Shown one piece after another: positions 7,003 to 45,620 of a stretch of DNA of 64,000 bases (its first letter is position 1; each line of letters opens with the position of its first letter). Origin of the DNA: Christensenellaceae bacterium. GTDB taxonomy: Bacteria > Bacillota > Clostridia > Christensenellales > DTU072. Under the pieces are notes generated by a model. That model had not been told where the DNA came from. It did no database searches and was given only the letters and a program-made list of their open reading frames with translations. Location: the NCBI GenBank assembly GCA_031259085.1, contig JAIRMA010000061.1, positions 39,773-103,772 of the forward strand. The letters are read 5' to 3'. The translations under genes were made by a program, and so were the position numbers.

Positions 7003-7079
7003 CGGGGTGTAGCGCAGCTTGGTAGCGCACTTGGTTTGGGACCAAGGGGCCGGGAGTTCGAATCTCTTCACCCCGACCA
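7003..7079 (+). tRNA. tRNA-Pro(TGG)
   Basis: Cloverleaf CGGGGTG...CACCCCG-ACCA; anticodon arm CTTGG-TTTGGGA-CCAAG; GTTCGAATC T-loop. Confidence 0.96.
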
Positions 7080-7102
7080 CGTGAGATCAAAAAAATTAAT
7101 AG

Positions 7103-7179
7103 GGGCTTTTAGCTCAGTTGGTCAGAGCGGTCGGCTCATAACCGATTGGTCCGCGGTTCGAGTCCGTGAAAGCCCACCA
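7103..7179 (+). tRNA. tRNA-Ile2(CAT) (lysidine-modified class)
   Basis: GGGCTTT...AAAGCCC-ACCA; anticodon loop CTCATAA; overall sequence resembles the Firmicute Ile2 class, not the fMet/Met tRNAs at 45.3 kb. Confidence 0.88.
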
Positions 7180-7195
7180 ATATCTTTTTACATGC

Positions 7196-7272
7196 GGTCC
7201 GGTAGTTCAGATGGTTAGAATGCTAGCCTGTCACGCTAGAGGTCGAGGGTTCGACTCCCTTCCGGATCGCCA
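7196..7272 (+). tRNA. tRNA-Asp(GTC)
   Basis: GGTCCGG...CCGGATC-GCCA; anticodon arm CTAGC-CTGTCAC-GCTAG. Confidence 0.96.
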
Positions 7273-7279
7273 TTCTTTT

Positions 7280-7355
7280 GCCTTGATAGCTCAGTCGGTA
7301 GAGCAATGGACTGAAAATCCATGTGTCGGTGGTTCAATTCCACCTCAAGGCACCA
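7280..7355 (+). tRNA. tRNA-Phe(GAA)
   Basis: GCCTTGA...TCAAGGC-ACCA; anticodon loop CTGAAAA. Confidence 0.96.
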
Positions 7356-7375
7356 TCCTAAGTTTTTCTGGTTAT

Positions 7376-7451
7376 GCTGGCTTAGCTCAACAGGCAGAGC
7401 AGCTGATTTGTAATCAGCAGGTTGATGGTTCGATTCCGTTAGCCAGCTCCA
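7376..7451 (+). tRNA. tRNA-Thr(TGT)
   Basis: GCTGGCT...AGCCAGC-TCCA; anticodon arm GCTGA-TTTGTAA-TCAGC. Confidence 0.95.
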
Positions 7452-7652: not shown

Positions 7653-7681
7653 TTGACAAAACCTGTATAAAATTATAAAAT
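7653..7681 (+). promoter_or_regulatory. sigma-A promoter of the riboswitch-controlled operon
   Basis: TTGACA (7653-7658), 17 bp, TAAAAT (7676-7681). Confidence 0.75.
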
Positions 7682-7760
7682 ATATAATGTTGTTTATATG
7701 CTTATAATTTTGTCTGTCAAAAGCATCTATATAACAAATTAGGATATCATAATTTCTTAT

Positions 7761-7842
7761 ATGTCAAAAGCAAACCAGGTGAAAGCCTGCGACGCAAAAC
7801 TAAAGGATCTACGTCATAAAGATACGATAGCCAGTTGCCAAT
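7761..7842 (+). ncRNA. GEMM-I (c-di-GMP-I class) riboswitch aptamer, A20 variant (candidate c-AMP-GMP sensor)
   Basis: GCAAACCAGGT-GAAA-GCCTGCGACGCAAAACT...GGATCTA...GATAGCCAGTTGCC matches the GEMM-I consensus (GCAAA, GAAA tetraloop, GACGCAAA, receptor-bearing P3). P1 pairs G7763-C7839, T7762-A7840, A7761-T7842 with bulged A7841, as in Vc2. Confidence 0.92.
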
Positions 7843-7869
7843 CGCGTTTGTTGTAACACTGGCTTTTTT
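7829..7869 (+). terminator. Riboswitch expression-platform intrinsic terminator
   Basis: AGCCAGT (7829-7835, 3' strand of aptamer P3) pairs with ACTGGCT (7858-7864), followed by TTTTT; mutually exclusive with the aptamer. Confidence 0.82.
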
Positions 7870-7932
7870 CATGTAACCTGGAAAAAGTAATTAGAGTAAA
7901 TTAGTGTTATCTCTATTATTGATGGAGGCCAC

Positions 7933-8160
7933 ATGGGACCTAAAAACTCAATCAAATTATTGCTCTCATCTGTTGTCCATAATTCAATATCAAAAATGTT
8001 TTGCCTCGTAAGATTTAAATCCTACTTAAAGTTAACTAAATTTAGGGATTTCCTTTTTTGTTTACATGCACAAAATACTGAGTTTTTGGACAATCTGCAT
8101 ATTAATCTAAACATTTCTTCAGATCGTAATAATTTCAGGAGCTTAGCCTTATATTCATGA
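7933..8160 (+). CDS. Small hypothetical protein / leader ORF, first ORF after the riboswitch
   Basis: GGAGG SD at 7924-7928, 4 nt before ATG; stop overlaps the next start (ATGA at 8157-8160). No recognisable family. Confidence 0.5.
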   Translation: MGPKNSIKLLLSSVVHNSISKMFCLVRFKSYLKLTKFRDFLFCLHAQNTEFLDNLHINLNISSDRNNFRSLALYS

Positions 8161-11100
8161 TAAAGCGGTTTTTTACACTACATATATATTCAATCGTTTT
8201 ATTGATTATTATATTAACAGCTTTTGCTTTCATAGGCGCTTCTGTATATGCTGCAATCAATAGCACTATAGACTTCAATGACATCTATCTTGCTGGTACT
8301 GACGTTTTTTATTTTGATTCAAATGAGTCATCCTATAGCAAAGATTATTCCGTCACTACTGCATCAACATCTGTGTCTGTCACAATTAAGCGTAATGACA
8401 AAACTAATGATCATGTGTACACAAAACTTGATTTGTTGGTGTTTTCTGACGGAATAGAGGCCACATATACTGCAACAGGTGTGACCTCTAAGCACACTAA
8501 TGTTTCCTTAAGCTCAAAAACCTACAAAAATTGCTCTATCATTGAAAATATTACATTTAAAACCACTGCATATTCAATTGCTATTTCAACACCTCCTACT
8601 AATCAAACTATTAATGTGGTTGTAATCCCACGCGCTGAATATTATTACGAGACACCTAATGCGAATGGTACTTATCAGGGGCATACTGCAGTCACACCAA
8701 ACCGGTATGTTGTAGATTTATTCGATTTAGAAATGTTGAATACAGAAGAACGCTATAATTTTTATTTAGATCCGAATGTGCCAATGCATAGACAACAATA
8801 TTATAAAAATGTTTATTTCTTAAGCGATATAATTGTTAATCGCGAGTTGATTATAAACTATCCTGGCTTTTTAAATCTACTCTTTGCTAAAATCCAGTTA
8901 TATAAGCCCTTAACTATTATGCACACATCTGAGGGAATGTATGATATAAAAACATTGGGTGGTAAGATATATAATTCCACTGAAAAATTTACTATAAATA
9001 CTCCAAAAGCTTATTATAGTGAATCTGGATCCACTGACACATCTCATACGTCTTTTATATGCACCAGTACAACAAACTTCAGTAAAACAACAAATGTGGA
9101 TTTCACAGACCCTCTTAATTCAGCGTTATTAAATGCGGCACTGTCCGATGCAGTAGTTTTTGCACAAAATCACATCCCTTTTCAATTGCTAAAAGATTTG
9201 ATTTTACCTAATGAATATCAGTCATTAGGCATTACTTACACGTATATTCTAAAGGACACCTCTCTTACCAACTTAGCTACTATTGGACATTTAGACAGAG
9301 ATCTATGGAACGCATCATCAACAACACAATACAAACTAGAAATAATCGCTAATTATGGTGGTACCAGTCTTTCAAAGACAATTGATATCGAATTAGTTGG
9401 CACTGGAATTGAGTCAATTACGTCAGCACTTGCAAATGCATATTACAATTTAGGAGTAACAACTGGCATTTTATTACCAGAGATTGATATTCAAACTGCA
9501 ACGGTTAAAAAGGATCAAAATAATAGCACAATTTTTATTTCATCTCTTAAGCAGGATTTGGAAATGACTGATTTATTAGAAACATTTATATATGAGTCTA
9601 ATTTAAGATCGGACATCTCACTTGTTTTGACTCCTGCCTCTCCAATTGATTTCCTATTTAACGATGAGCTTTATAGACGAGTTGACTTAACTTATTCAAC
9701 TACCTATCAAAAATATAGGATCTCATTTAGTAAGGATCCGTCGACTCCAGATAATGTTACATTCTATAGTCTTGATTCTATCCAGTTCTTTGCCTCTCCT
9801 CAAACGCTGTTACTGCTAGCAAGCGAGGCAGAAATGAAGGTAATCACTTATAATCTTGACTTAGATAACAATCTAAATAATAATATAGAGGCTACTTCTG
9901 CCGTTGCAAAATTTTATGTGTACGGTATTTCTTTTAAAGAACAGCAAATGTATCTAGAACGTTTCATAGAGAATAAATATGTCACATCAAAAGATCAAAT
10001 CGTAAATCTTTTAAGGGTCGATACTGCACTTGATAGAATATTTAATGGACCAACTGAGGAAGTCATCCCTTATACTTTTAATCTTAAAAGTATAACATAT
10101 AATTTTTATTGTGTTGATAGTGATGACGCAGATTATTTAGTAGATTTAAATAATACATATGATGCAAAAGCTACTTATTTTGCTACTATTATAAATAATA
10201 ATTCTCACACAATAAATCCTTCTGCGCCCCCAGGGGACGATACTTATAATTCATTTTTCATTTTTGATACAACTAATAGCACGATGGAGCTAGCCAATGA
10301 TGTTTATTTAAACATCCCTGATGGGACTTCCATGATAATAAAAATTGATCTTACTTATGAACAAAATGTTGTATTGCCACATGGAGTAGGTGACTATTCT
10401 ACTTATCGCAGATTCATAATCCCCAAAGAAGGACTTGGGGGCAATGATTCTACAAAATATTTATTAGGCGACACTTTTGCTGAATATTTTAACAATTTAG
10501 TTAATGGAATGTTAATTGATTCAACCTTAAGCCTTTTTACTGATGGCGTCGAAACTACACCAGGCACTGCGTTTATGTTAAAACCTGATTCCTCAGATGA
10601 TATAATTGGACTCAGAATGAGTATCGTCAATGATTCTGAGGTTGGAGCATACTGCAAAATTTTACAACCCGATTCAGTAAACCATCCATATTGGTGGCAA
10701 ATTGAGATTGATATAGATAAAATACCTGCATACAATTCCGTAGTCAACGTTTCTGCCGAGTTTTTTATAATAGTAAATAATGCAGAAACCCCATTGTCAG
10801 AGCAATTATATTCTTTTATAATCCCTGGCATATATAGAGTAGGTGCTTCAGCTGAATTCAAATCTACACAATTATACGAACTAATAATCTCAATCAAAGA
10901 TAATTCTAACAACTATTTGTATGGGTATTATGAATCACAACAAGGAGACAAGTACCTTTTAGTTGACTACGCTCAAAAAGATGTTGATACATTAGAAATC
11001 ACACAAGCGGCTTTAGATTCGCAACCTAGTGGGGCTGTGCCCGCTAGTGGACTTGATCTTAGTGGCATGGAATACCTTATTAATACGAAAAAATTAATAT

Positions 11101-12107
11101 TTAAAAATGTTAGAAAAATTATAAGCTTCGAGCCGTTTAATCGTATTGACACTTCAATCATAACCGAATTGACTCTTGATAATTGCAGTCTCACAGATGC
11201 TTTATTGAATCCTGCTTATTTGGCTAATTTGCAAACTCTCACGTACGTTAATTTAAATAATAACCCTAATATCACGAGGCTGTCATTACCAAGTGGCACG
11301 AAGAGTGATCCTGTATACACCCCCTATTTTTATAGGTCAGTGGAAATATTCTCTTTAGATAAAACAGGGATCCGTGAAATTCTTGACATTACAAAATATC
11401 CGTACATAACAGATTTGTATGTAAGAGATACACCTATTCCATTTTACGAGCCTCTCGTCTCTTTAAAATATTTAAAGCGTCTATACTTAGATTGGACACA
11501 GACTACAAGGAATGACAGCTTTTATTTTAACGAAAATTTACCCTCTACTTCATATGATGCAAGTGTTAATAATTATTTATACGCAAACGGTGTTGTAAAT
11601 ATTCCTGAGTATGTGACACTAATAATCAAAGGTGTGTCAATTTATTATAAACCATCGGCTGGGGTTAGTGACGCTCTCATGGCAATTGGAGAAAATGAAT
11701 TCATTCCTTATGACTTATATGAGGCCGCTATAATACTAAATAGCATCTATGTTTTTCGTCAACATTATAATTATTTAGCTTTTCCTGCTAAAGTATTTTC
11801 AAAAAACTATCAGATTGGAGGCACATCAAACGGTACTAGAACAGAAATCTATGTTAGGTATGCTATCAATAATACTCAGACCTCTGGAGCATCGTATTTG
11901 TTTACTGCAAGAGAATTTAATCATCATTCTTCGCCTACCACGACTTCTGACCCACATGCTACTACTGATACTACAACGACGGACGACGCAATAAAGTTTA
12001 GTACAACGCCAGCAAGCAATCGCCTTATTTATATAGTAGCAAAATGCACAGTAAATTCAACTACTTCTTATAAGGCTTATCCTTTAATTTGGATGGGGTT
12101 GAAATGA
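8157..12107 (+). CDS. Large secreted/surface protein with C-terminal leucine-rich repeats (internalin-like)
   Basis: 1316 aa; N-terminal signal/TM segment ending ASVYA; T/S/N/Y-rich beta-type body; LRR units LDLSGMEYLINTKKLIF, ITELTLDNCSLTD, LANLQTLTYVNLNNNPNITRL, LVSLKYLKRLYLD. Confidence 0.85.
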   Translation: MIKRFFTLHIYSIVLLIIILTAFAFIGASVYAAINSTIDFNDIYLAGTDVFYFDSNESSYSKDYSVTTASTSVSVTIKRNDKTNDHVYTKLDLLVFSDGIEATYTATGVTSKHTNVSLSSKTYKNCSIIENITFKTTAYSIAISTPPTNQTINVVVIPRAEYYYETPNANGTYQGHTAVTPNRYVVDLFDLEMLNTEERYNFYLDPNVPMHRQQYYKNVYFLSDIIVNRELIINYPGFLNLLFAKIQLYKPLTIMHTSEGMYDIKTLGGKIYNSTEKFTINTPKAYYSESGSTDTSHTSFICTSTTNFSKTTNVDFTDPLNSALLNAALSDAVVFAQNHIPFQLLKDLILPNEYQSLGITYTYILKDTSLTNLATIGHLDRDLWNASSTTQYKLEIIANYGGTSLSKTIDIELVGTGIESITSALANAYYNLGVTTGILLPEIDIQTATVKKDQNNSTIFISSLKQDLEMTDLLETFIYESNLRSDISLVLTPASPIDFLFNDELYRRVDLTYSTTYQKYRISFSKDPSTPDNVTFYSLDSIQFFASPQTLLLLASEAEMKVITYNLDLDNNLNNNIEATSAVAKFYVYGISFKEQQMYLERFIENKYVTSKDQIVNLLRVDTALDRIFNGPTEEVIPYTFNLKSITYNFYCVDSDDADYLVDLNNTYDAKATYFATIINNNSHTINPSAPPGDDTYNSFFIFDTTNSTMELANDVYLNIPDGTSMIIKIDLTYEQNVVLPHGVGDYSTYRRFIIPKEGLGGNDSTKYLLGDTFAEYFNNLVNGMLIDSTLSLFTDGVETTPGTAFMLKPDSSDDIIGLRMSIVNDSEVGAYCKILQPDSVNHPYWWQIEIDIDKIPAYNSVVNVSAEFFIIVNNAETPLSEQLYSFIIPGIYRVGASAEFKSTQLYELIISIKDNSNNYLYGYYESQQGDKYLLVDYAQKDVDTLEITQAALDSQPSGAVPASGLDLSGMEYLINTKKLIFKNVRKIISFEPFNRIDTSIITELTLDNCSLTDALLNPAYLANLQTLTYVNLNNNPNITRLSLPSGTKSDPVYTPYFYRSVEIFSLDKTGIREILDITKYPYITDLYVRDTPIPFYEPLVSLKYLKRLYLDWTQTTRNDSFYFNENLPSTSYDASVNNYLYANGVVNIPEYVTLIIKGVSIYYKPSAGVSDALMAIGENEFIPYDLYEAAIILNSIYVFRQHYNYLAFPAKVFSKNYQIGGTSNGTRTEIYVRYAINNTQTSGASYLFTAREFNHHSSPTTTSDPHATTDTTTTDDAIKFSTTPASNRLIYIVAKCTVNSTTSYKAYPLIWMGLK

Positions 12108-13243
12108 GCATGAAAGAACTTAAAAAGAAAACACTAATAACTTCTATCGTGACAATCATTCTCGTAATATTTCTATCAATCGGCGTTCTATGGGCATGGT
12201 TTTATGATGAGGAAGTAGACGGCACAATACCCCGTCAAACAGGTGATCTTTATGCCAAATTCGAATTATACTCTGGCCGTGACCATAATTTAGATGCGCG
12301 TTTAGATCCCATAAATTTGTCATATTTAGGTGTTTCTAATATCACCAGAACAACACGTCTATCGCAATTTTACAATAAAACAAACGATTATTTAACTGCT
12401 GGGGCAGATGATTCTCTTAACTCCTGGCTAAGTCTAAAGGAAGGTCGCGCAGTATCCTATAAAATGCTAGCTACAGTTCTAAAAGATTCCCCGTCTGGTG
12501 TTTTTGAACTGAATTTTTCTAATTTAGCTCACTACTTTTATCTCAATCCTCAAAACTATTTAGATATTGTCTCTTATCCTAACACATTATCTCCACTAGC
12601 TAATTATCTTAAGACCCTAGGGACTACCAATAAGGGTAATTTTTCAACACTTATTACCACGACTGCTTTTCAAGACTATCTAGGTAATAATGTTGCTAGA
12701 TTGATGTATAAGCTGATAATTGATGGCGTCAGAATATATTCAGATGAGAATGGGACTCAATTTACCGCGTTTAATACAGGATTTGAGAAAATTCTGACAA
12801 CTAGCGTTGCAACTGAATCCACAAATTTAGGGGTGCCACAATTAACAATCCCTAAAACAGAATATTATTTACATGAATTGTCACATAGTGAACCTTTTGT
12901 TCAGGATATAGTGCTTAGTAGTGAACAACTAATAGAGGTTGATTTTCATTTAGTTGCGATTGGAGAAACAGAAGCTATAGACAAATATACTAATTATTTG
13001 GCTACCGAAAAAACTTCTCTAGCTTCTCGTGCAAGCTCCTACATAAATAATATAGGCAACTTCTATGCCGTATTGAATGCCACACAAGTGAATGCACTAT
13101 CTACTATTGCAAATAACTTTATAGATGACATGTCTAATGTAGAAATTTCATATCTCTTAGGTGAAATTGTTGACGAACGCAAACTACTTTTTAATATTGA
13201 TCGAATTACTGGATCTATTAGATCTATAGTGGATGGTGTTTAA
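12104..13243 (+). CDS. Secreted protein with SipW-cognate-type signal peptide (TasA/CalY-like N-terminus)
   Basis: KKKT, hydrophobic stretch, GVLWAWFYD. Start moved to ATG 12104, which overlaps the upstream TGA (ATGA). Confidence 0.75.
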   Translation: MSMKELKKKTLITSIVTIILVIFLSIGVLWAWFYDEEVDGTIPRQTGDLYAKFELYSGRDHNLDARLDPINLSYLGVSNITRTTRLSQFYNKTNDYLTAGADDSLNSWLSLKEGRAVSYKMLATVLKDSPSGVFELNFSNLAHYFYLNPQNYLDIVSYPNTLSPLANYLKTLGTTNKGNFSTLITTTAFQDYLGNNVARLMYKLIIDGVRIYSDENGTQFTAFNTGFEKILTTSVATESTNLGVPQLTIPKTEYYLHELSHSEPFVQDIVLSSEQLIEVDFHLVAIGETEAIDKYTNYLATEKTSLASRASSYINNIGNFYAVLNATQVNALSTIANNFIDDMSNVEISYLLGEIVDERKLLFNIDRITGSIRSIVDGV

Positions 13244-14127
13244 TGGAAGCTCTAAAAAAAGAAAAACGAAAACACCTAATAAAAATGTTAGTGCCTATTT
13301 GTGCAGCTGTTTCTTTGGTTGTGATTGCTGCCATTGCGATGTCTGGGCTATATGGTTGGTTTGCTTTCAGTGATAATGCTGTTGTCAGTGAGTCCACTTT
13401 CTTTGTTAGAACCGGAAATGAGCCTAACATTCAGATTGAAGCCTTAGATGTAAATGGTAATTTACTTGAAAACCCGCCAACTGTAATTAAGCCTGGTGAC
13501 TATTTGCGCTTTCGAATAAGCTTATATAATCACACAGGGACCACTGTTAAACGTTCTCTTTTAATTAATAATTTGTTTGTGTTATATCCTACACAAAAAA
13601 CAATTGATTCAGTCCCATTTACTTTTGACAATGAGCATGTTAATACAGATGATTACTATTTCGGTACTGGGATGGTTAGATTTGATATATTTAATACAAC
13701 AAATTTCCCGAATCAGTCTAATAGATATGATTTTTTCACATCATTTATGGCCCCTGCTACAAATGCTCTACGATACTCTTTGAGAACTACATTTAACCCC
13801 TATTTTGATCCAAATGAAAATTATTTAAAGATGACAGCTCTAAGTAATGCAACAGCTAGTGAAATAATTGCACCAGAAATGAATAACGTGCTTGCTACTC
13901 CTGTGCCTTTATCGATATCTAGTATAGAGAATATTACTGCATTCTCTATACCTTCAACCGCCACTACTTATGATACAGCGGTTGTTACCTATCTCTTATT
14001 ATATTTTAACCCAGACTTCCCTAGTACTTCTTTATTTTCAAATCAACCTGTCGTTTTAAAAAATAGCAATCCGTTCTATTGGCAGGATTTAGAGATTTTT
14101 TTGAATTTTGAGGATGTTTCAGTTTAA
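13243..14127 (+). CDS. Secreted protein with SipW-cognate-type signal peptide (TasA/CalY-like N-terminus)
   Basis: KKEKRK, hydrophobic stretch, SGLYGWFAFSDN...TFFVRTGN, and IKPGD.....ISLYNHTG, resembling the TasA/CalY-family 'PGD...i.N.G' strand; TAATG coupling to the upstream gene. Confidence 0.78.
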   Translation: MEALKKEKRKHLIKMLVPICAAVSLVVIAAIAMSGLYGWFAFSDNAVVSESTFFVRTGNEPNIQIEALDVNGNLLENPPTVIKPGDYLRFRISLYNHTGTTVKRSLLINNLFVLYPTQKTIDSVPFTFDNEHVNTDDYYFGTGMVRFDIFNTTNFPNQSNRYDFFTSFMAPATNALRYSLRTTFNPYFDPNENYLKMTALSNATASEIIAPEMNNVLATPVPLSISSIENITAFSIPSTATTYDTAVVTYLLLYFNPDFPSTSLFSNQPVVLKNSNPFYWQDLEIFLNFEDVSV

Positions 14128-14300
14128 ATAGCGTATTAAAGTTTTAACCATTCTCAAGTTTTTGTAGTTTCCCTTCTTAAATTCAATTTGCTATTGCAAT
14201 ATTTACTCTTTTGTGTTAAAATATTGTAATATTTAATGAAGAGTTTTTCTGAATTTCTTTTTTTTTATAACAAAAGCATGTTGGAGGGAAACCAAAGAAT

Positions 14301-16907
14301 ATGAATTTCATTTTCCAAAAAATATCGAATGTGGCAACAGATGTTCGTGCGCATTGGAGAAGACCAGCTCCTAAGAATCATATACCATACCGTGAGATGG
14401 CAAATTATTCTATCGCAGGTCTTGGATATAACTTTATAGGCTTACTCACAACATATTTAGGCCTCGCCGCTACTAATACTTTTATAGGGTCAGTCATTGG
14501 AATTAGACCAGTTGATATTTATTATATGAATATCGCTATGTCTATTGTTAGCTCCGTGTTTTCGTTAATAAGAGGCACTATAGTTGACAATACAAAAACT
14601 AGATGGGGCAAATTTAGACCATACATCCTTTTCTTTGGACTACCAGTAATGGTCATAGATATATTGTTTGTCTTTTTGCCTTTTGACAGGTATAGCTATA
14701 CAGAGAAAATATTCTATATCTTGCTAGTGAGCGTAGGCCACGGTTTTTTAGCTCCATTCTTTACAGACACCTATGGCGATTTGAAATCCGTAATGTCACC
14801 AAACACGGAGGAGCGCACCATTTTAATTACTGTGCAAACAATGATTATGTCATTTGCACCAACTCTTACCAACTTTTTCATACCACTCCTAATGTCAAAA
14901 ATACCTGGCAATTACACAAATATTTATGCATACAGATGGATAATAGCGCCAGTCGCTGGCGTAGGGTTTTTCTTCACGCTCTTTGCGGCGTTTGGGACAA
15001 AGGAGCGCACAGTCCTACCTAAACAATATAAGCCCAAGGTGCGTCTTATTAAGGGTATTGTTCAAATATATAAAAATAAGTATTTTTGGGTTCGTAATTT
15101 GCACGGTTGGCTTGGATTCTTAGAAGGTGCCTTTGGCGCTTTGTTTGGATGGATTTTTATCTATTATTTGCAAGACATGGTAATGATGGGCGTGGTCCAA
15201 ACCATAAATGGTGTAGCGGGGGGGATTTGTATACTCATAACCCCATGGGTACTTAGGAAAATTGGAAACAGACGAATGCTACTAATGGTCAATGTCTTGA
15301 ACGTTTTATTTGTATCATTGATGTCTCTCACATTTAAACTGCCAGCCCTCTATTTCACATTCAATTGGCTGAATACATTCTTACAAATGTTCTATATGGT
15401 AGGTGATCCTGTTATGCATTGTGAGGTTAAGGATTACCAACAATACTTGTCTGGTGAGCGGTTGGATTTTGTGTTTGGATCAGCTTTAATTATAGGGACA
15501 CCTATAGGCATTTTTTCTGGGATGGTAATACCACGCGTTTATGAGTCAATGGGGCTCACTACAAATTATGATGTGTTATATGACCCAGCCGTAAGGAATG
15601 CAATGTTTAGAGTTTTGTGTTACCTATCAATAATTGGCTCTATTTTGAATTTGCTACCATTATTCTTTTATGATTTAACAGCTATAAAACATCGTAATAT
15701 CATTAAAGTGTTAAAACTTAGAGCACTTTTCGATGATTATATCTCAGAGGATGGAGTAATTCCAGCAGACGTGATCAAGCATAATGTTGAGCAGATAAAT
15801 GAAGCCAATTTGTTGACTTCACTAGAAAAGCCAAATTTAAAAGAGATAAGGAGTAATATTCTGCGGTCTGTTAAGGCCAAGGGCTCAAATTCAACTGAAA
15901 AGAAGCAGCGCTGGAAAGCAATAATACACGCATATAGTGATTTAACTAAGGCTAAGGATCTATATGATGAAATCGATACAGCAAATATTGTCTTAAACGA
16001 ATTAAACAAATTTTCGACTAAAGAATTCATTGTTAAGGCAGAATTAGCAACTGAGACTGTTAGTTTAACTTTCGATGATGTATTAAAACTAAATGATGAC
16101 CTCTTAATTGAGGCTAAAAATATTACACGTCCAAACCGAAAGGAGTTAATTAATCAAGCTAAAAAAATTCATTTTAACGAAAGTAATCTAAAAGAAATAC
16201 TAAAAGAGGTTGAGAAAAAATACAAAGAAGATGTGATGCTCAGACGATTTAAGATTAATAGGGCTCGGGGTCTCTTGAAAATGCGCGATCTTTCTATAAA
16301 ATATTATCCAGACGGATTGGTCGTACCAGACCCACAAGTCTACAAGAGCGCACAAGAAATGCCTGCTACTAATAACAAGGAGCGAAAACTTAAATTTAAT
16401 GCGCTAAAGGCTGCTGAAAAAACAATAAATCTATATCACAGAGTAGCAGAGGTTTATATAGATGCACAGCGTTTACTCAATTTGAAACGAGCGTATCTGT
16501 CATATTCTGAAATTGCTACGCGCTATGATGTGGCTTGTCTTGAAGTCGCAGAAAATGAAAGGATTCGTGTTGAGAAAGAATTGGAAGCTAAGCTTGAGAA
16601 AAAAGCAGAGCTCGACCGAATTAGAGCTGAAAAATTCGCACAGCTGTCACCTAAGCGGCAGGAATCAGTCCTAGCTAAACGCGCTAAACGCGCGGAGAAA
16701 GAGCGGCTAAAAGCTCTTGAAAAACAGAAACGTTTAGATGAGCAGGATAAAAAGGATGATCCTCACAAAGAAGAAACTGACTTACCTCTTGATAATTCAA
16801 TTGATGATAATGCAAATATAATTGAACCAGTGACCTTGCCTGTTGATCTAGAGAGCACAGAGTCTAACATAAAAGAAATTGAAGAGTCAAATGAGGAGGA
16901 AGATTAA
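14301..16907 (+). CDS. GPH-family MFS transporter with long charged C-terminal cytoplasmic extension
   Basis: DNTKTRWGKFRPY motif and DYQQYLSGERLD; TM region ends at about aa 458; remaining ~410 aa are K/E/R-rich and helical; SD GGAGGG. Confidence 0.87.
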   Translation: MNFIFQKISNVATDVRAHWRRPAPKNHIPYREMANYSIAGLGYNFIGLLTTYLGLAATNTFIGSVIGIRPVDIYYMNIAMSIVSSVFSLIRGTIVDNTKTRWGKFRPYILFFGLPVMVIDILFVFLPFDRYSYTEKIFYILLVSVGHGFLAPFFTDTYGDLKSVMSPNTEERTILITVQTMIMSFAPTLTNFFIPLLMSKIPGNYTNIYAYRWIIAPVAGVGFFFTLFAAFGTKERTVLPKQYKPKVRLIKGIVQIYKNKYFWVRNLHGWLGFLEGAFGALFGWIFIYYLQDMVMMGVVQTINGVAGGICILITPWVLRKIGNRRMLLMVNVLNVLFVSLMSLTFKLPALYFTFNWLNTFLQMFYMVGDPVMHCEVKDYQQYLSGERLDFVFGSALIIGTPIGIFSGMVIPRVYESMGLTTNYDVLYDPAVRNAMFRVLCYLSIIGSILNLLPLFFYDLTAIKHRNIIKVLKLRALFDDYISEDGVIPADVIKHNVEQINEANLLTSLEKPNLKEIRSNILRSVKAKGSNSTEKKQRWKAIIHAYSDLTKAKDLYDEIDTANIVLNELNKFSTKEFIVKAELATETVSLTFDDVLKLNDDLLIEAKNITRPNRKELINQAKKIHFNESNLKEILKEVEKKYKEDVMLRRFKINRARGLLKMRDLSIKYYPDGLVVPDPQVYKSAQEMPATNNKERKLKFNALKAAEKTINLYHRVAEVYIDAQRLLNLKRAYLSYSEIATRYDVACLEVAENERIRVEKELEAKLEKKAELDRIRAEKFAQLSPKRQESVLAKRAKRAEKERLKALEKQKRLDEQDKKDDPHKEETDLPLDNSIDDNANIIEPVTLPVDLESTESNIKEIEESNEEED

Positions 16908-45253: not shown

Positions 45254-45329
<76 letters not shown>

Positions 45330-45377
45330 TTTTTTTTATAGTCTTTAGGATGAGTTACACGAGTCTCTATAGACTGA

Positions 45378-45454
45378 GGCGGCGTAGCTTAGGTGGTTAT
45401 AGCGGCCGGTTCATACCCGGCAGGTCGTTGGTTCGAATCCGACCGCCGCTACCA
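45378..45454 (+). tRNA. Elongator tRNA-Met(CAT)
   Basis: GGCGGCG...CGCCGCT-ACCA; anticodon arm GCCGG-TTCATAC-CCGGC. Confidence 0.93.
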
Positions 45455-45466
45455 TTTTTTTTATCA

Positions 45467-45541
45467 GGTCCCATCGTCAAGCGGTCAAGACGTTGCCCTT
45501 TCACGGCAGAGTCGGGAGTTCGATTCTCCCTGGGATCACCA
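45467..45541 (+). tRNA. tRNA-Glu(TTC)
   Basis: GGTCCCA...TGGGATC-ACCA; anticodon loop CTTTCAC. Confidence 0.95.
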
Positions 45542-45544
45542 CTT

Positions 45545-45620
45545 GGGAGCATAGCTCAGCTGGGAGAGCGCTTGCCTTACAAGCAAGATGTCACAGGTTC
45601 AAGTCCTGTTGTTCCCACCA
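45545..45620 (+). tRNA. tRNA-Val(TAC)
   Basis: GGGAGCA...TGTTCCC-ACCA; anticodon loop CTTACAA. Confidence 0.96.

Follow-up and report, generated by a model that had tools for sequence, protein, structure and literature searches.

A c-di-GMP riboswitch-led operon of secreted proteins with candidate SipW-type signals in a Christensenellaceae bacterium

The subject of this study is an operon at positions 7653 to 14127 of a 64,000-nucleotide stretch of DNA (the window) from a Christensenellaceae bacterium (GenBank assembly GCA_031259085.1, contig JAIRMA010000061.1; genome G000 in what follows). Behind a leader with a promoter and a riboswitch for the second messenger cyclic di-GMP (c-di-GMP) lie three genes on the plus strand, which we call ORF2, ORF3, and ORF4 and, together, the triad. 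ORF2 (8157-12107) encodes a secreted protein of 1316 amino acids (aa) with a signal that appears to end in SVYA/AI and an internalin-type leucine-rich repeat (LRR) region. ORF3 (12104-13243) encodes a secreted protein of 379 aa, counted from its ATG, with the signal motif G-V-L-W-A/W-F and no known family, and ORF4 (13243-14127) a secreted protein of 294 aa with the motif L-Y-G/W-F that belongs to an unnamed family; the slashes mark presumed cleavage sites. Overlapping stops and starts form the gene junctions, with ATGA at 8157 and 12104 and TAATG at 13243. An original prediction, made from the sequence before our analysis, had counted four ORFs joined in this way. The three large ones stand, but the first, a 75-aa open frame in the leader (7933-8160, plus strand) that overlaps position 8157 through the ATGA, is probably no gene. 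It has no family match in Pfam or NCBIfam, and we rejected it because the orthologous locus L016 lacks its ATG, has diverged in sequence and holds no leader ORF of at least 70 aa. That the locus is a riboswitch-controlled operon of secreted proteins is, overall, close to certain.

None of the three proteins matches a Pfam or NCBIfam family, and a word-based search of 5.8 billion proteins returned one relative per protein, and these all came from the same Christensenellaceae metagenome-assembled genome (MAG). The LRR region of ORF2 spans approximately residues 960-1150 (approximately nucleotides 11035-11606) and is of the internalin type. Searched as a single sequence, it reached no Pfam or NCBIfam model below an E-value of 0.1; a profile of four ORF2 orthologues, compared with the sequences of the PDB, found Roco and internalin LRR structures at positions of approximately 971-1158 with E-values of 7e-13 to 1e-8. 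ORF2 has one hydrophobic segment, which is N-terminal, and no S-layer homology (SLH) or other Pfam match, while near the C-termini of the operon proteins there is neither an LPXTG-like motif nor a hydrophobic segment. The earlier description of ORF2 as a secreted LRR protein that lacks an LPxTG, SLH or C-terminal transmembrane anchor is borne out by these results. For ORF4, a profile search of 1.84 billion cluster representatives gave 22 proteins of 222-329 aa at E ≤ 1e-3, of which 19 were aligned with the window protein (alignment A3, 20 sequences; P0019, P0021, and P0025 were omitted as truncated or divergent). The family is approximately 280 aa long and carries the motifs PGxY, YPT, DYY, FVxPxTNAxxY, LYFDP, and NSNPYxxQ, with W39, P116, S275, N276, and Q281 invariant in the alignment. 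It has no match in Pfam, NCBIfam or PDB sequences (the best PDB row has an E-value of 0.33, and pilin and flagellin rows at 1.4-1.5 are noise), the ORF3 profile has no PDB sequence match either, and no full-length member of the ORF4 family turned up among the 398 other genomes scored at the class level. Two ideas about the smaller proteins were tried and rejected. Beyond the signal, ORF3 and ORF4 show no detectable relationship that would make them paralogues (hhalign 0.6 % once the signals are removed), and a reading as type IV pilins fails because the sequences lack a prepilin site of the G/FTLxE type.

The leader opens with a putative sigma-70-type promoter at 7653-7681 (plus strand; TTGACA, 17 nt, TAAAAT), which has 11 of 12 consensus matches and both hexamers of which are kept in L016. 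On the same strand, a c-di-GMP-I (GEMM-I) riboswitch aptamer follows at 7759-7842. It scored 65.6 bits against RF01051, which has a gathering score of 35, in a covariance-model search of the whole window (E 1.3e-10), and the nearly identical aptamer of L016 scored 63.4 bits. An intrinsic terminator (7829-7869, plus strand) overlaps the aptamer. Its 5' arm, AGCCAGU at 7829-7835, is at the same time the 3' strand of the second helix of the aptamer according to the Rfam structure line (AGCC-AGUU in the alignment), its 3' arm, ACUGGCU, lies at 7858-7864, the U6 tract occupies 7864-7869, and the hairpin folds at -10.9 kcal/mol. Because both use the strand 7829-7835, the bound aptamer and the terminator are mutually exclusive, and the layout is therefore that of an ON switch. 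We predict a transcriptional c-di-GMP ON switch, with a polarity inferred from this arrangement. Promoter, aptamer, hairpin, and U-tract are all kept in L016, where the remaining leader has diverged, and a second riboswitch of G000, on contig C32, has the same expression platform. The promoter and the GEMM-I riboswitch with an overlapping terminator had been part of the original prediction and were confirmed, and the second-messenger control that it proposed is supported, as the riboswitch is real and its terminator and aptamer compete. From the terminator to the first start codon, the leader measures approximately 290 nt. The box TGGAGGCCA at 7923-7931 is the sole conserved stretch in this part and resembles a ribosome binding site, yet no start codon follows it in L016.

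Thus far we know the triad from four Christensenellaceae genomes only, namely G000 and three MAGs (L016, L067, and L068), at identities of 30-66 % (37-53 % for the orthologues of ORF2 and 31-66 % for those of ORF3 in the three other genomes). The synteny that the original prediction had proposed to look for in related genomes is present in all three, where the tight spacing is kept with overlaps of 0-1 nt or short gaps. In L067 and L068 (genomes G787 and G788), a giant ORF precedes the triad, encoding approximately 3,540 and 3,600 aa on the assumption of uninterrupted frames, and one c-di-GMP-I riboswitch lies approximately 100 nt and 86 nt, respectively, upstream of its start codon. In these two genomes the giant, the LRR protein, ORF3, and ORF4 form one riboswitch-led operon. 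G000 has a homologue of the giant, a 3660-aa ORF at C32:9090-20072 (E 1e-104 and 5e-134) with its own c-di-GMP-I riboswitch, and the giants, that of C32 included, carry internalin-type LRRs. Since the giant leads the triad operon in G787 and G788 and has this homologue on C32, the functional unit is one of four proteins, divided in G000 and G786 between two units that each lie behind a riboswitch.

The signals of these four proteins follow a common pattern, an aromatic residue, Ala or Gly, any residue, and then a hydrophobic or aromatic one, with presumed cleavage at LYG/WF in ORF4, LWA/WF in ORF3, VYA/AI in ORF2, and SFA/RF in the giant; mature ORF4 and ORF3 would begin at W39 and W32, respectively. 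The LWAWF and LYGWF ends of the two smaller proteins had been noted before and agree with the ORF translations. Judged by its residues, the pattern appears to fit the substrates of SipW, a signal peptidase I of the endoplasmic reticulum (ER) type, with an aromatic P2, Ala or Gly at P1, and Trp-Phe (Ala-Ile in ORF2) at P1'-P2'. In TasA, according to PMC10269814, a Phe at P2' and a Trp at P2 hinder LepB, and it is SipW that cleaves the site. By mean pairwise identity, no segment of the three families is better conserved than the cleavage motif, the values for motif vs. mature part being 48 % vs. 23 % in the ORF4 family, 67 % vs. 39 % in ORF3, and 50 % vs. 42 % in ORF2. Matches of the ORF4-family profile to protein N-termini also occur in 41 of the 401 genomes of the order (frames of 119-1217 aa). 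These N-termini read ...T[FY]AWF[ST]... and form a gradient of signals from GTTFAWFTD to the type found in the window; five of the 31 tested pass the signal model TIGR04088 and three more are just below it. When compared by hhalign with a canonical set of eight such proteins, five of which pass TIGR04088, the ORF4 family scored 95.6 % (E 1e-8, 110 columns) and ORF3 86.9 %, and this likeness is located in the signal.

Some further carriers of such signals were seen along the way. Very large frames with a like N-terminal signal module occur in L012 (G302:C1:122109-122534; 4390 aa), at L058:9959-13519 (approximately 1190 aa), and at G104:C16:3694-3993 (1217 aa), so SipW-type signals on giants seem common in the order. 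G000 itself has three tandem ORFs of 220, 248, and 213 aa at C111:15459-17517 (L009:7460-9518) with the signals GTSFAWF, GATFSWF, and ADTFAIW; two of them narrowly miss the TIGR04088 cut-off, with 15.2 and 13.3 bits, and the third has a BspA-type LRR_5 match.

Peptidases of the matching kind are present in the genome. G000 has four SipW-type genes, and these are additional, since two LepB-type peptidases above the cut-off are also present, with LepB-type coding found on contig C56. The original prediction, which saw no SipW peptidase in the window and expected one to act in trans, gains support from these four genes, and the genome search that it proposed for sipW and GGDEF genes yielded two GGDEF genes as well, along with one EAL gene. 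Order-wide, 331 SipW matches were found, and a SipW-type gene is present in 38 of the 41 genomes with a profile match vs. 195 of 401 overall. Around such signal genes we inspected 20 loci from the 40 other genomes with an N-terminal match: 16 hold a SipW-like ORF within 10 kb, often adjacent, and among the 13 loci at which no SipW was known beforehand, nine do. SipW genes are likewise present in all three other triad genomes.

In G000, SipW genes are found in two paralogous cassettes, C94:4279-13260 (L007) and C73:8464-13999 (L008). Both contain a divergent SipW-like protein in which DSMKGD or DSMSGD replaces SMxP, a membrane AAA ATPase (Walker A GISGTGKT), a DUF2357-like protein of 562 or 679 aa, and a canonical SipW, while C94 adds to these a small membrane protein, a 548-aa protein with a TATYAWF signal, and an EAL protein upstream. 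The gene order on C73 is SipW-like, membrane AAA, 562-aa protein, and SipW, with the canonical SipW at 8464-9249; a c-di-GMP-I riboswitch of its own precedes this cassette, which has no AWF-type substrate gene beside it. Homologues of the cassette proteins recur among the 20 loci, the membrane AAA ATPase at 12, the large DUF2357-like protein at 10, and the small membrane protein at 14. Downstream of the C73 cassette (C73:3591-7579, L008), lipobox-like N-termini point to two lipoproteins, one of 244 aa with Flg_new repeats and one of 971 aa with Big_3 and BspA-type LRR_5 repeats.

The distribution of riboswitches ties the substrates to the peptidase. The three c-di-GMP-I riboswitches of G000 precede the triad, the giant on C32, and the C73 SipW cassette, and G786 repeats this three-way layout. 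In G788, a riboswitch lies before a SipW pair, and in G787 a tandem riboswitch leads a series of AAA, a 564-aa protein, and SipW, located on the strand of the triad and approximately 5.4 kb downstream of it. Among the related loci, a c-di-GMP-I riboswitch was found upstream of the cassette in six of the 15 searched (L052, L057, L058, L061, and L065 of the 20 were left out). Tandem c-di-GMP-I aptamers occur in several places in relatives, three in a row at G787:C167:7285-7644 and two before SipW cassettes at G787 C217:5106-5323 (L067:16331-16548) and L053:12023-12203. In the literature, taken as titles and the openings of abstracts with supplements excluded, we found no report that ties a c-di-GMP riboswitch to SipW, TasA or camelysin, nor, again with supplements excluded, one that links SipW to Christensenellaceae or to DUF2357.

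On balance, we lean toward a reading in which a c-di-GMP ON switch governs an operon of three genes, the products of which are exported as surface or matrix proteins and processed by SipW in trans. SipW processing in trans and induction by c-di-GMP are supported by the signal motifs, the SipW genes, and the riboswitch-led cassette, and SipW-dependent processing, taken by itself, we predict to be rather likely. In the absence of ligand, AGCCAGU (7829-7835) would pair with ACUGGCU (7858-7864) and form the terminator before the U6 tract. With c-di-GMP bound, this strand would be held in the second helix of the aptamer and transcription could read through into ORF2, ORF3, and ORF4, the translation of which may be coupled by the overlapping stops and starts. 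The signals would then probably be cleaved in trans by the SipW-type peptidases of C73 and C94. High c-di-GMP could in this way co-induce four substrates and a peptidase cassette and so give rise to an adhesive surface or matrix structure; a role in adhesion is suggested by the adhesin character that the internalin-type LRRs lend to ORF2 and the giants. A bolder and rather improbable extension concerns the cassette that is conserved across the order (small membrane protein, T[FY]AWF-signal protein or proteins, divergent SipW-like protein, membrane AAA ATPase, large DUF2357-like protein, canonical SipW). Powered by ATP, this may be a machine for building a new class of Gram-positive surface fiber or giant-adhesin array under the direct control of c-di-GMP riboswitches, with the triad and the 3660-aa giant as its co-regulated clients and the invariant Trp-Phe N-terminus, exposed by cleavage, as the assembly handle.

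Several observations weigh against the reading that we favor. As regards the switch, the terminator fold is near that of shuffled sequences (z -1.7), its loop is long at approximately 22 nt, a simple terminator scan missed the hairpin at 7829-7864, the expression platform is less clear at the C73 riboswitch, and the ON polarity is based on the logic of the sequence only. As regards processing, no SipW-type gene lies in the window or anywhere on its 110-kb contig, and in three of the four triad genomes the link between triad and SipW exists only in trans. TIGR04088 (cut-off 19 bits) has no match among the three window proteins, the 20 ORF4-family members or the three giants tested, and the hydrophobic helix inside the N-terminal profile matches inflates their scores. 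The 20 loci were chosen by best match, with seven already known to hold SipW, and related genomes are not independent samples. Lastly, the AAA core of the cassette matches PDC-M26A, an uncharacterised defence candidate in PADLOC, and the export role of the SipW cassettes is therefore uncertain.

The original prediction went further than the reading given above and saw ORF3 and ORF4 as TasA/CalY-type subunits. Put in full, and with the giant included, this would be a heteropolymeric donor-strand filament, in which N-terminal strands of ORF3 and ORF4 freed by SipW insert into neighboring subunits while the LRR protein and the giant serve as tip or side adhesins. TasA fibers assemble by donor-strand exchange (PMC9674648; PMC10269814), with a donor strand that consists of the first mature residues 28-38, F29 included, and TapA has a similar N-terminus (PMC9674648). 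The SipW-type signals here, with an invariant Trp-Phe at the presumed P1'-P2', would suit such a role, and multiple SipW-cognate proteins in one operon are the pattern of tapA-sipW-tasA and sipW-bsaABC (PMC7395162). The ESM Atlas offers leads, though only leads, in the same direction: the nearest named cluster for ORF4 has Peptidase_M73 in 26 % of its members (score 0.89), that for ORF3 is named "TasA family" and has Peptidase_M73 in 52 % (score 0.90, 181 shared features), and structure rows with Peptidase_M73 clusters reach TM values of 0.30-0.52, all under the bar. Against this, Pfam PF12389 (Peptidase_M73) matches neither ORF3 nor ORF4 at E ≤ 1, nor any of the 20 ORF4-family members, nor anything in the whole genome, the BsaA model TIGR04090 touches one of the 20 family members at an E-value of 0.026, and there is no PDB sequence match. 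With the signal removed, hhalign against the camelysin-like proteins of relatives, seven of eight of which touch PF12389, falls to 0.4 % for the ORF4 family and 0.1 % for ORF3. AlphaFold2 monomers built from two-sequence alignments are too poor for a comparison of folds (pLDDT 39.9 for ORF4 and 35.7 for ORF3), and a complex prediction with three copies of mature ORF4 (residues 39-294, A3) returned no verdict, at a score of 0.00. Moreover, the SipW-signal proteins of the order are large and varied (frames of 119-1217 aa), so a signal of this type alone implies no fiber. The assignment to TasA/CalY is consequently not supported. The search with SipW-cognate and TasA/CalY models that had been proposed gave a divided answer, as TIGR04088, TIGR04090, and Peptidase_M73 found no match in the window proteins but the likeness of the signals held at the profile level. 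Because the similarity of the mature domains vanishes and the models are poor, polymerization by a freed strand as in TasA is an analogy only; we regard a TasA-like polymer as doubtful, and the complete donor-strand filament with its tip or side adhesins as equally so.

It is rather unlikely that the signals are ordinary Sec signals or uncleaved anchors, handled by housekeeping LepB-type enzymes or not cut at all, in which case the proteins would be membrane-tethered or released adhesins and the SipW cassettes, unconnected with them, would serve only their own neighbors. This would explain why TIGR04088 finds no match, it has two LepB-type peptidases at its disposal, and it is in keeping with a peptidase gene outside the operon and window and with a C94 cassette that has its own substrate gene. 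The best-conserved segment of the proteins is, however, a motif with aromatics at P2 and P2', of the kind that is unfavorable to LepB in the account of PMC10269814. The C73 cassette, moreover, is riboswitch-led yet has no adjoining substrate gene to serve, and the pairing recurs in G786, while in G787 the cassette is close to the triad. As to the switch, an OFF switch or translational control, with the operon expressed at low c-di-GMP, might be read from the modest hairpin and from the approximately 290 nt of leader between terminator and first start codon that are left unexplained. We think it improbable, as the 5' arm of the terminator is the 3' helix strand of the aptamer, so that ligand binding excludes termination, and as the same platform is found at the C32 riboswitch and in L016. 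A phage-related or defence function instead of adhesion is extremely unlikely: among the unnamed Atlas clusters, the best one for ORF3 bears a viral label (a phylum is known for one member), and the AAA of the cassette matches PDC-M26A, but neither the window proteins nor the other cassette proteins have a PADLOC match, and the LRR adhesin architecture, the c-di-GMP control, and the chromosomal synteny, with the same tRNA cluster adjoining in two genomes, all speak for a different role. A reading of the cassette as a defence system was likewise tried and rejected, as it is the AAA core alone that matches the PADLOC candidate.

In Firmicutes such as Clostridioides difficile and the Bacillus cereus group, c-di-GMP riboswitches control adhesin and pilus genes, and the adhesins so controlled are sortase-anchored or type IV pili. 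The operon in the window resembles these systems in that a leader RNA that senses c-di-GMP would switch on genes for surface adhesion, and differs from them in its lack of LPXTG motifs and in its SipW-type signals. Compared with tapA-sipW-tasA of Bacillus subtilis, it shares several secreted proteins whose signals end in an aromatic residue, a small one, any residue, and a hydrophobic or aromatic one (TWA/AF in TasA), as well as a tie to the sessile lifestyle (PMC9674648; PMC10269814). Unlike in that operon, the peptidase gene is located elsewhere, the mature domains have no detectable similarity to TasA or camelysin, the partners are giant LRR proteins, and SipW is encoded in cassettes together with a membrane AAA ATPase and a DUF2357-like protein; regulation falls to a c-di-GMP riboswitch, whereas the regulator of TasA is given as SinR (PMC9674648). 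Closer in taxonomy is sipW-bsaABC of Clostridium perfringens, also a member of the Clostridia, where SipW is needed to export the polymer-forming matrix protein BsaA and two further secreted proteins are encoded in the operon (PMC7395162). LPXTG is lacking there as it is here, and sortase is described as dispensable; that operon differs in its control by a two-component system and temperature, in the lack of giant LRR partners in the account that PMC7395162 gives of it, and in that TIGR04090 only weakly matches a single one of the 20 ORF4-family members. Archaeal bundling pili of AbpA provide another instance of an ER-type (SipW-like) signal peptidase outside Bacillus, with subunits that are TasA-like (PMC9245690). 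They are archaeal and their structure has been solved (PMC9245690); no link in sequence or structure with the proteins described here was found, nor was one tested for.

Within this field, most of what is known of SipW-dependent matrix proteins comes from Bacillus and C. perfringens, where they are encoded beside the peptidase and governed by protein regulators. Here, in a little-studied order of gut bacteria, substrates and peptidase cassette occupy separate loci that are tied together by c-di-GMP riboswitches. The substrates include giant LRR proteins and two families without known relatives, and the peptidases share their cassette, which is found in many genomes, with an AAA ATPase and a large protein of unknown kind. 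If the reading of SipW-processed, c-di-GMP-induced surface proteins is true, Christensenellaceae would have a simple RNA-level adhesion regulon, the substrate motif of SipW would extend to W-F, and the cassette would be a pointer to an undescribed assembly system.

The genes on either side of the operon can be described briefly. Downstream, an MFS_2/GPH-type transporter of 868 aa (14301-16907, plus strand) begins 174 nt past the operon and has a C-terminal extension of approximately 400 aa that is charged and coiled-coil-like. A promoter-like site lies at 14194-14222, no terminator was found between the operon and the transporter, and the transporter is found behind the triad in L016 as well, though not behind that of L067. 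The window contains two tRNA clusters on the plus strand, one of five tRNAs at 7003-7448 and one of four at 45254-45617. The first of these lies directly upstream of the riboswitch promoter, an arrangement that is kept in L016.

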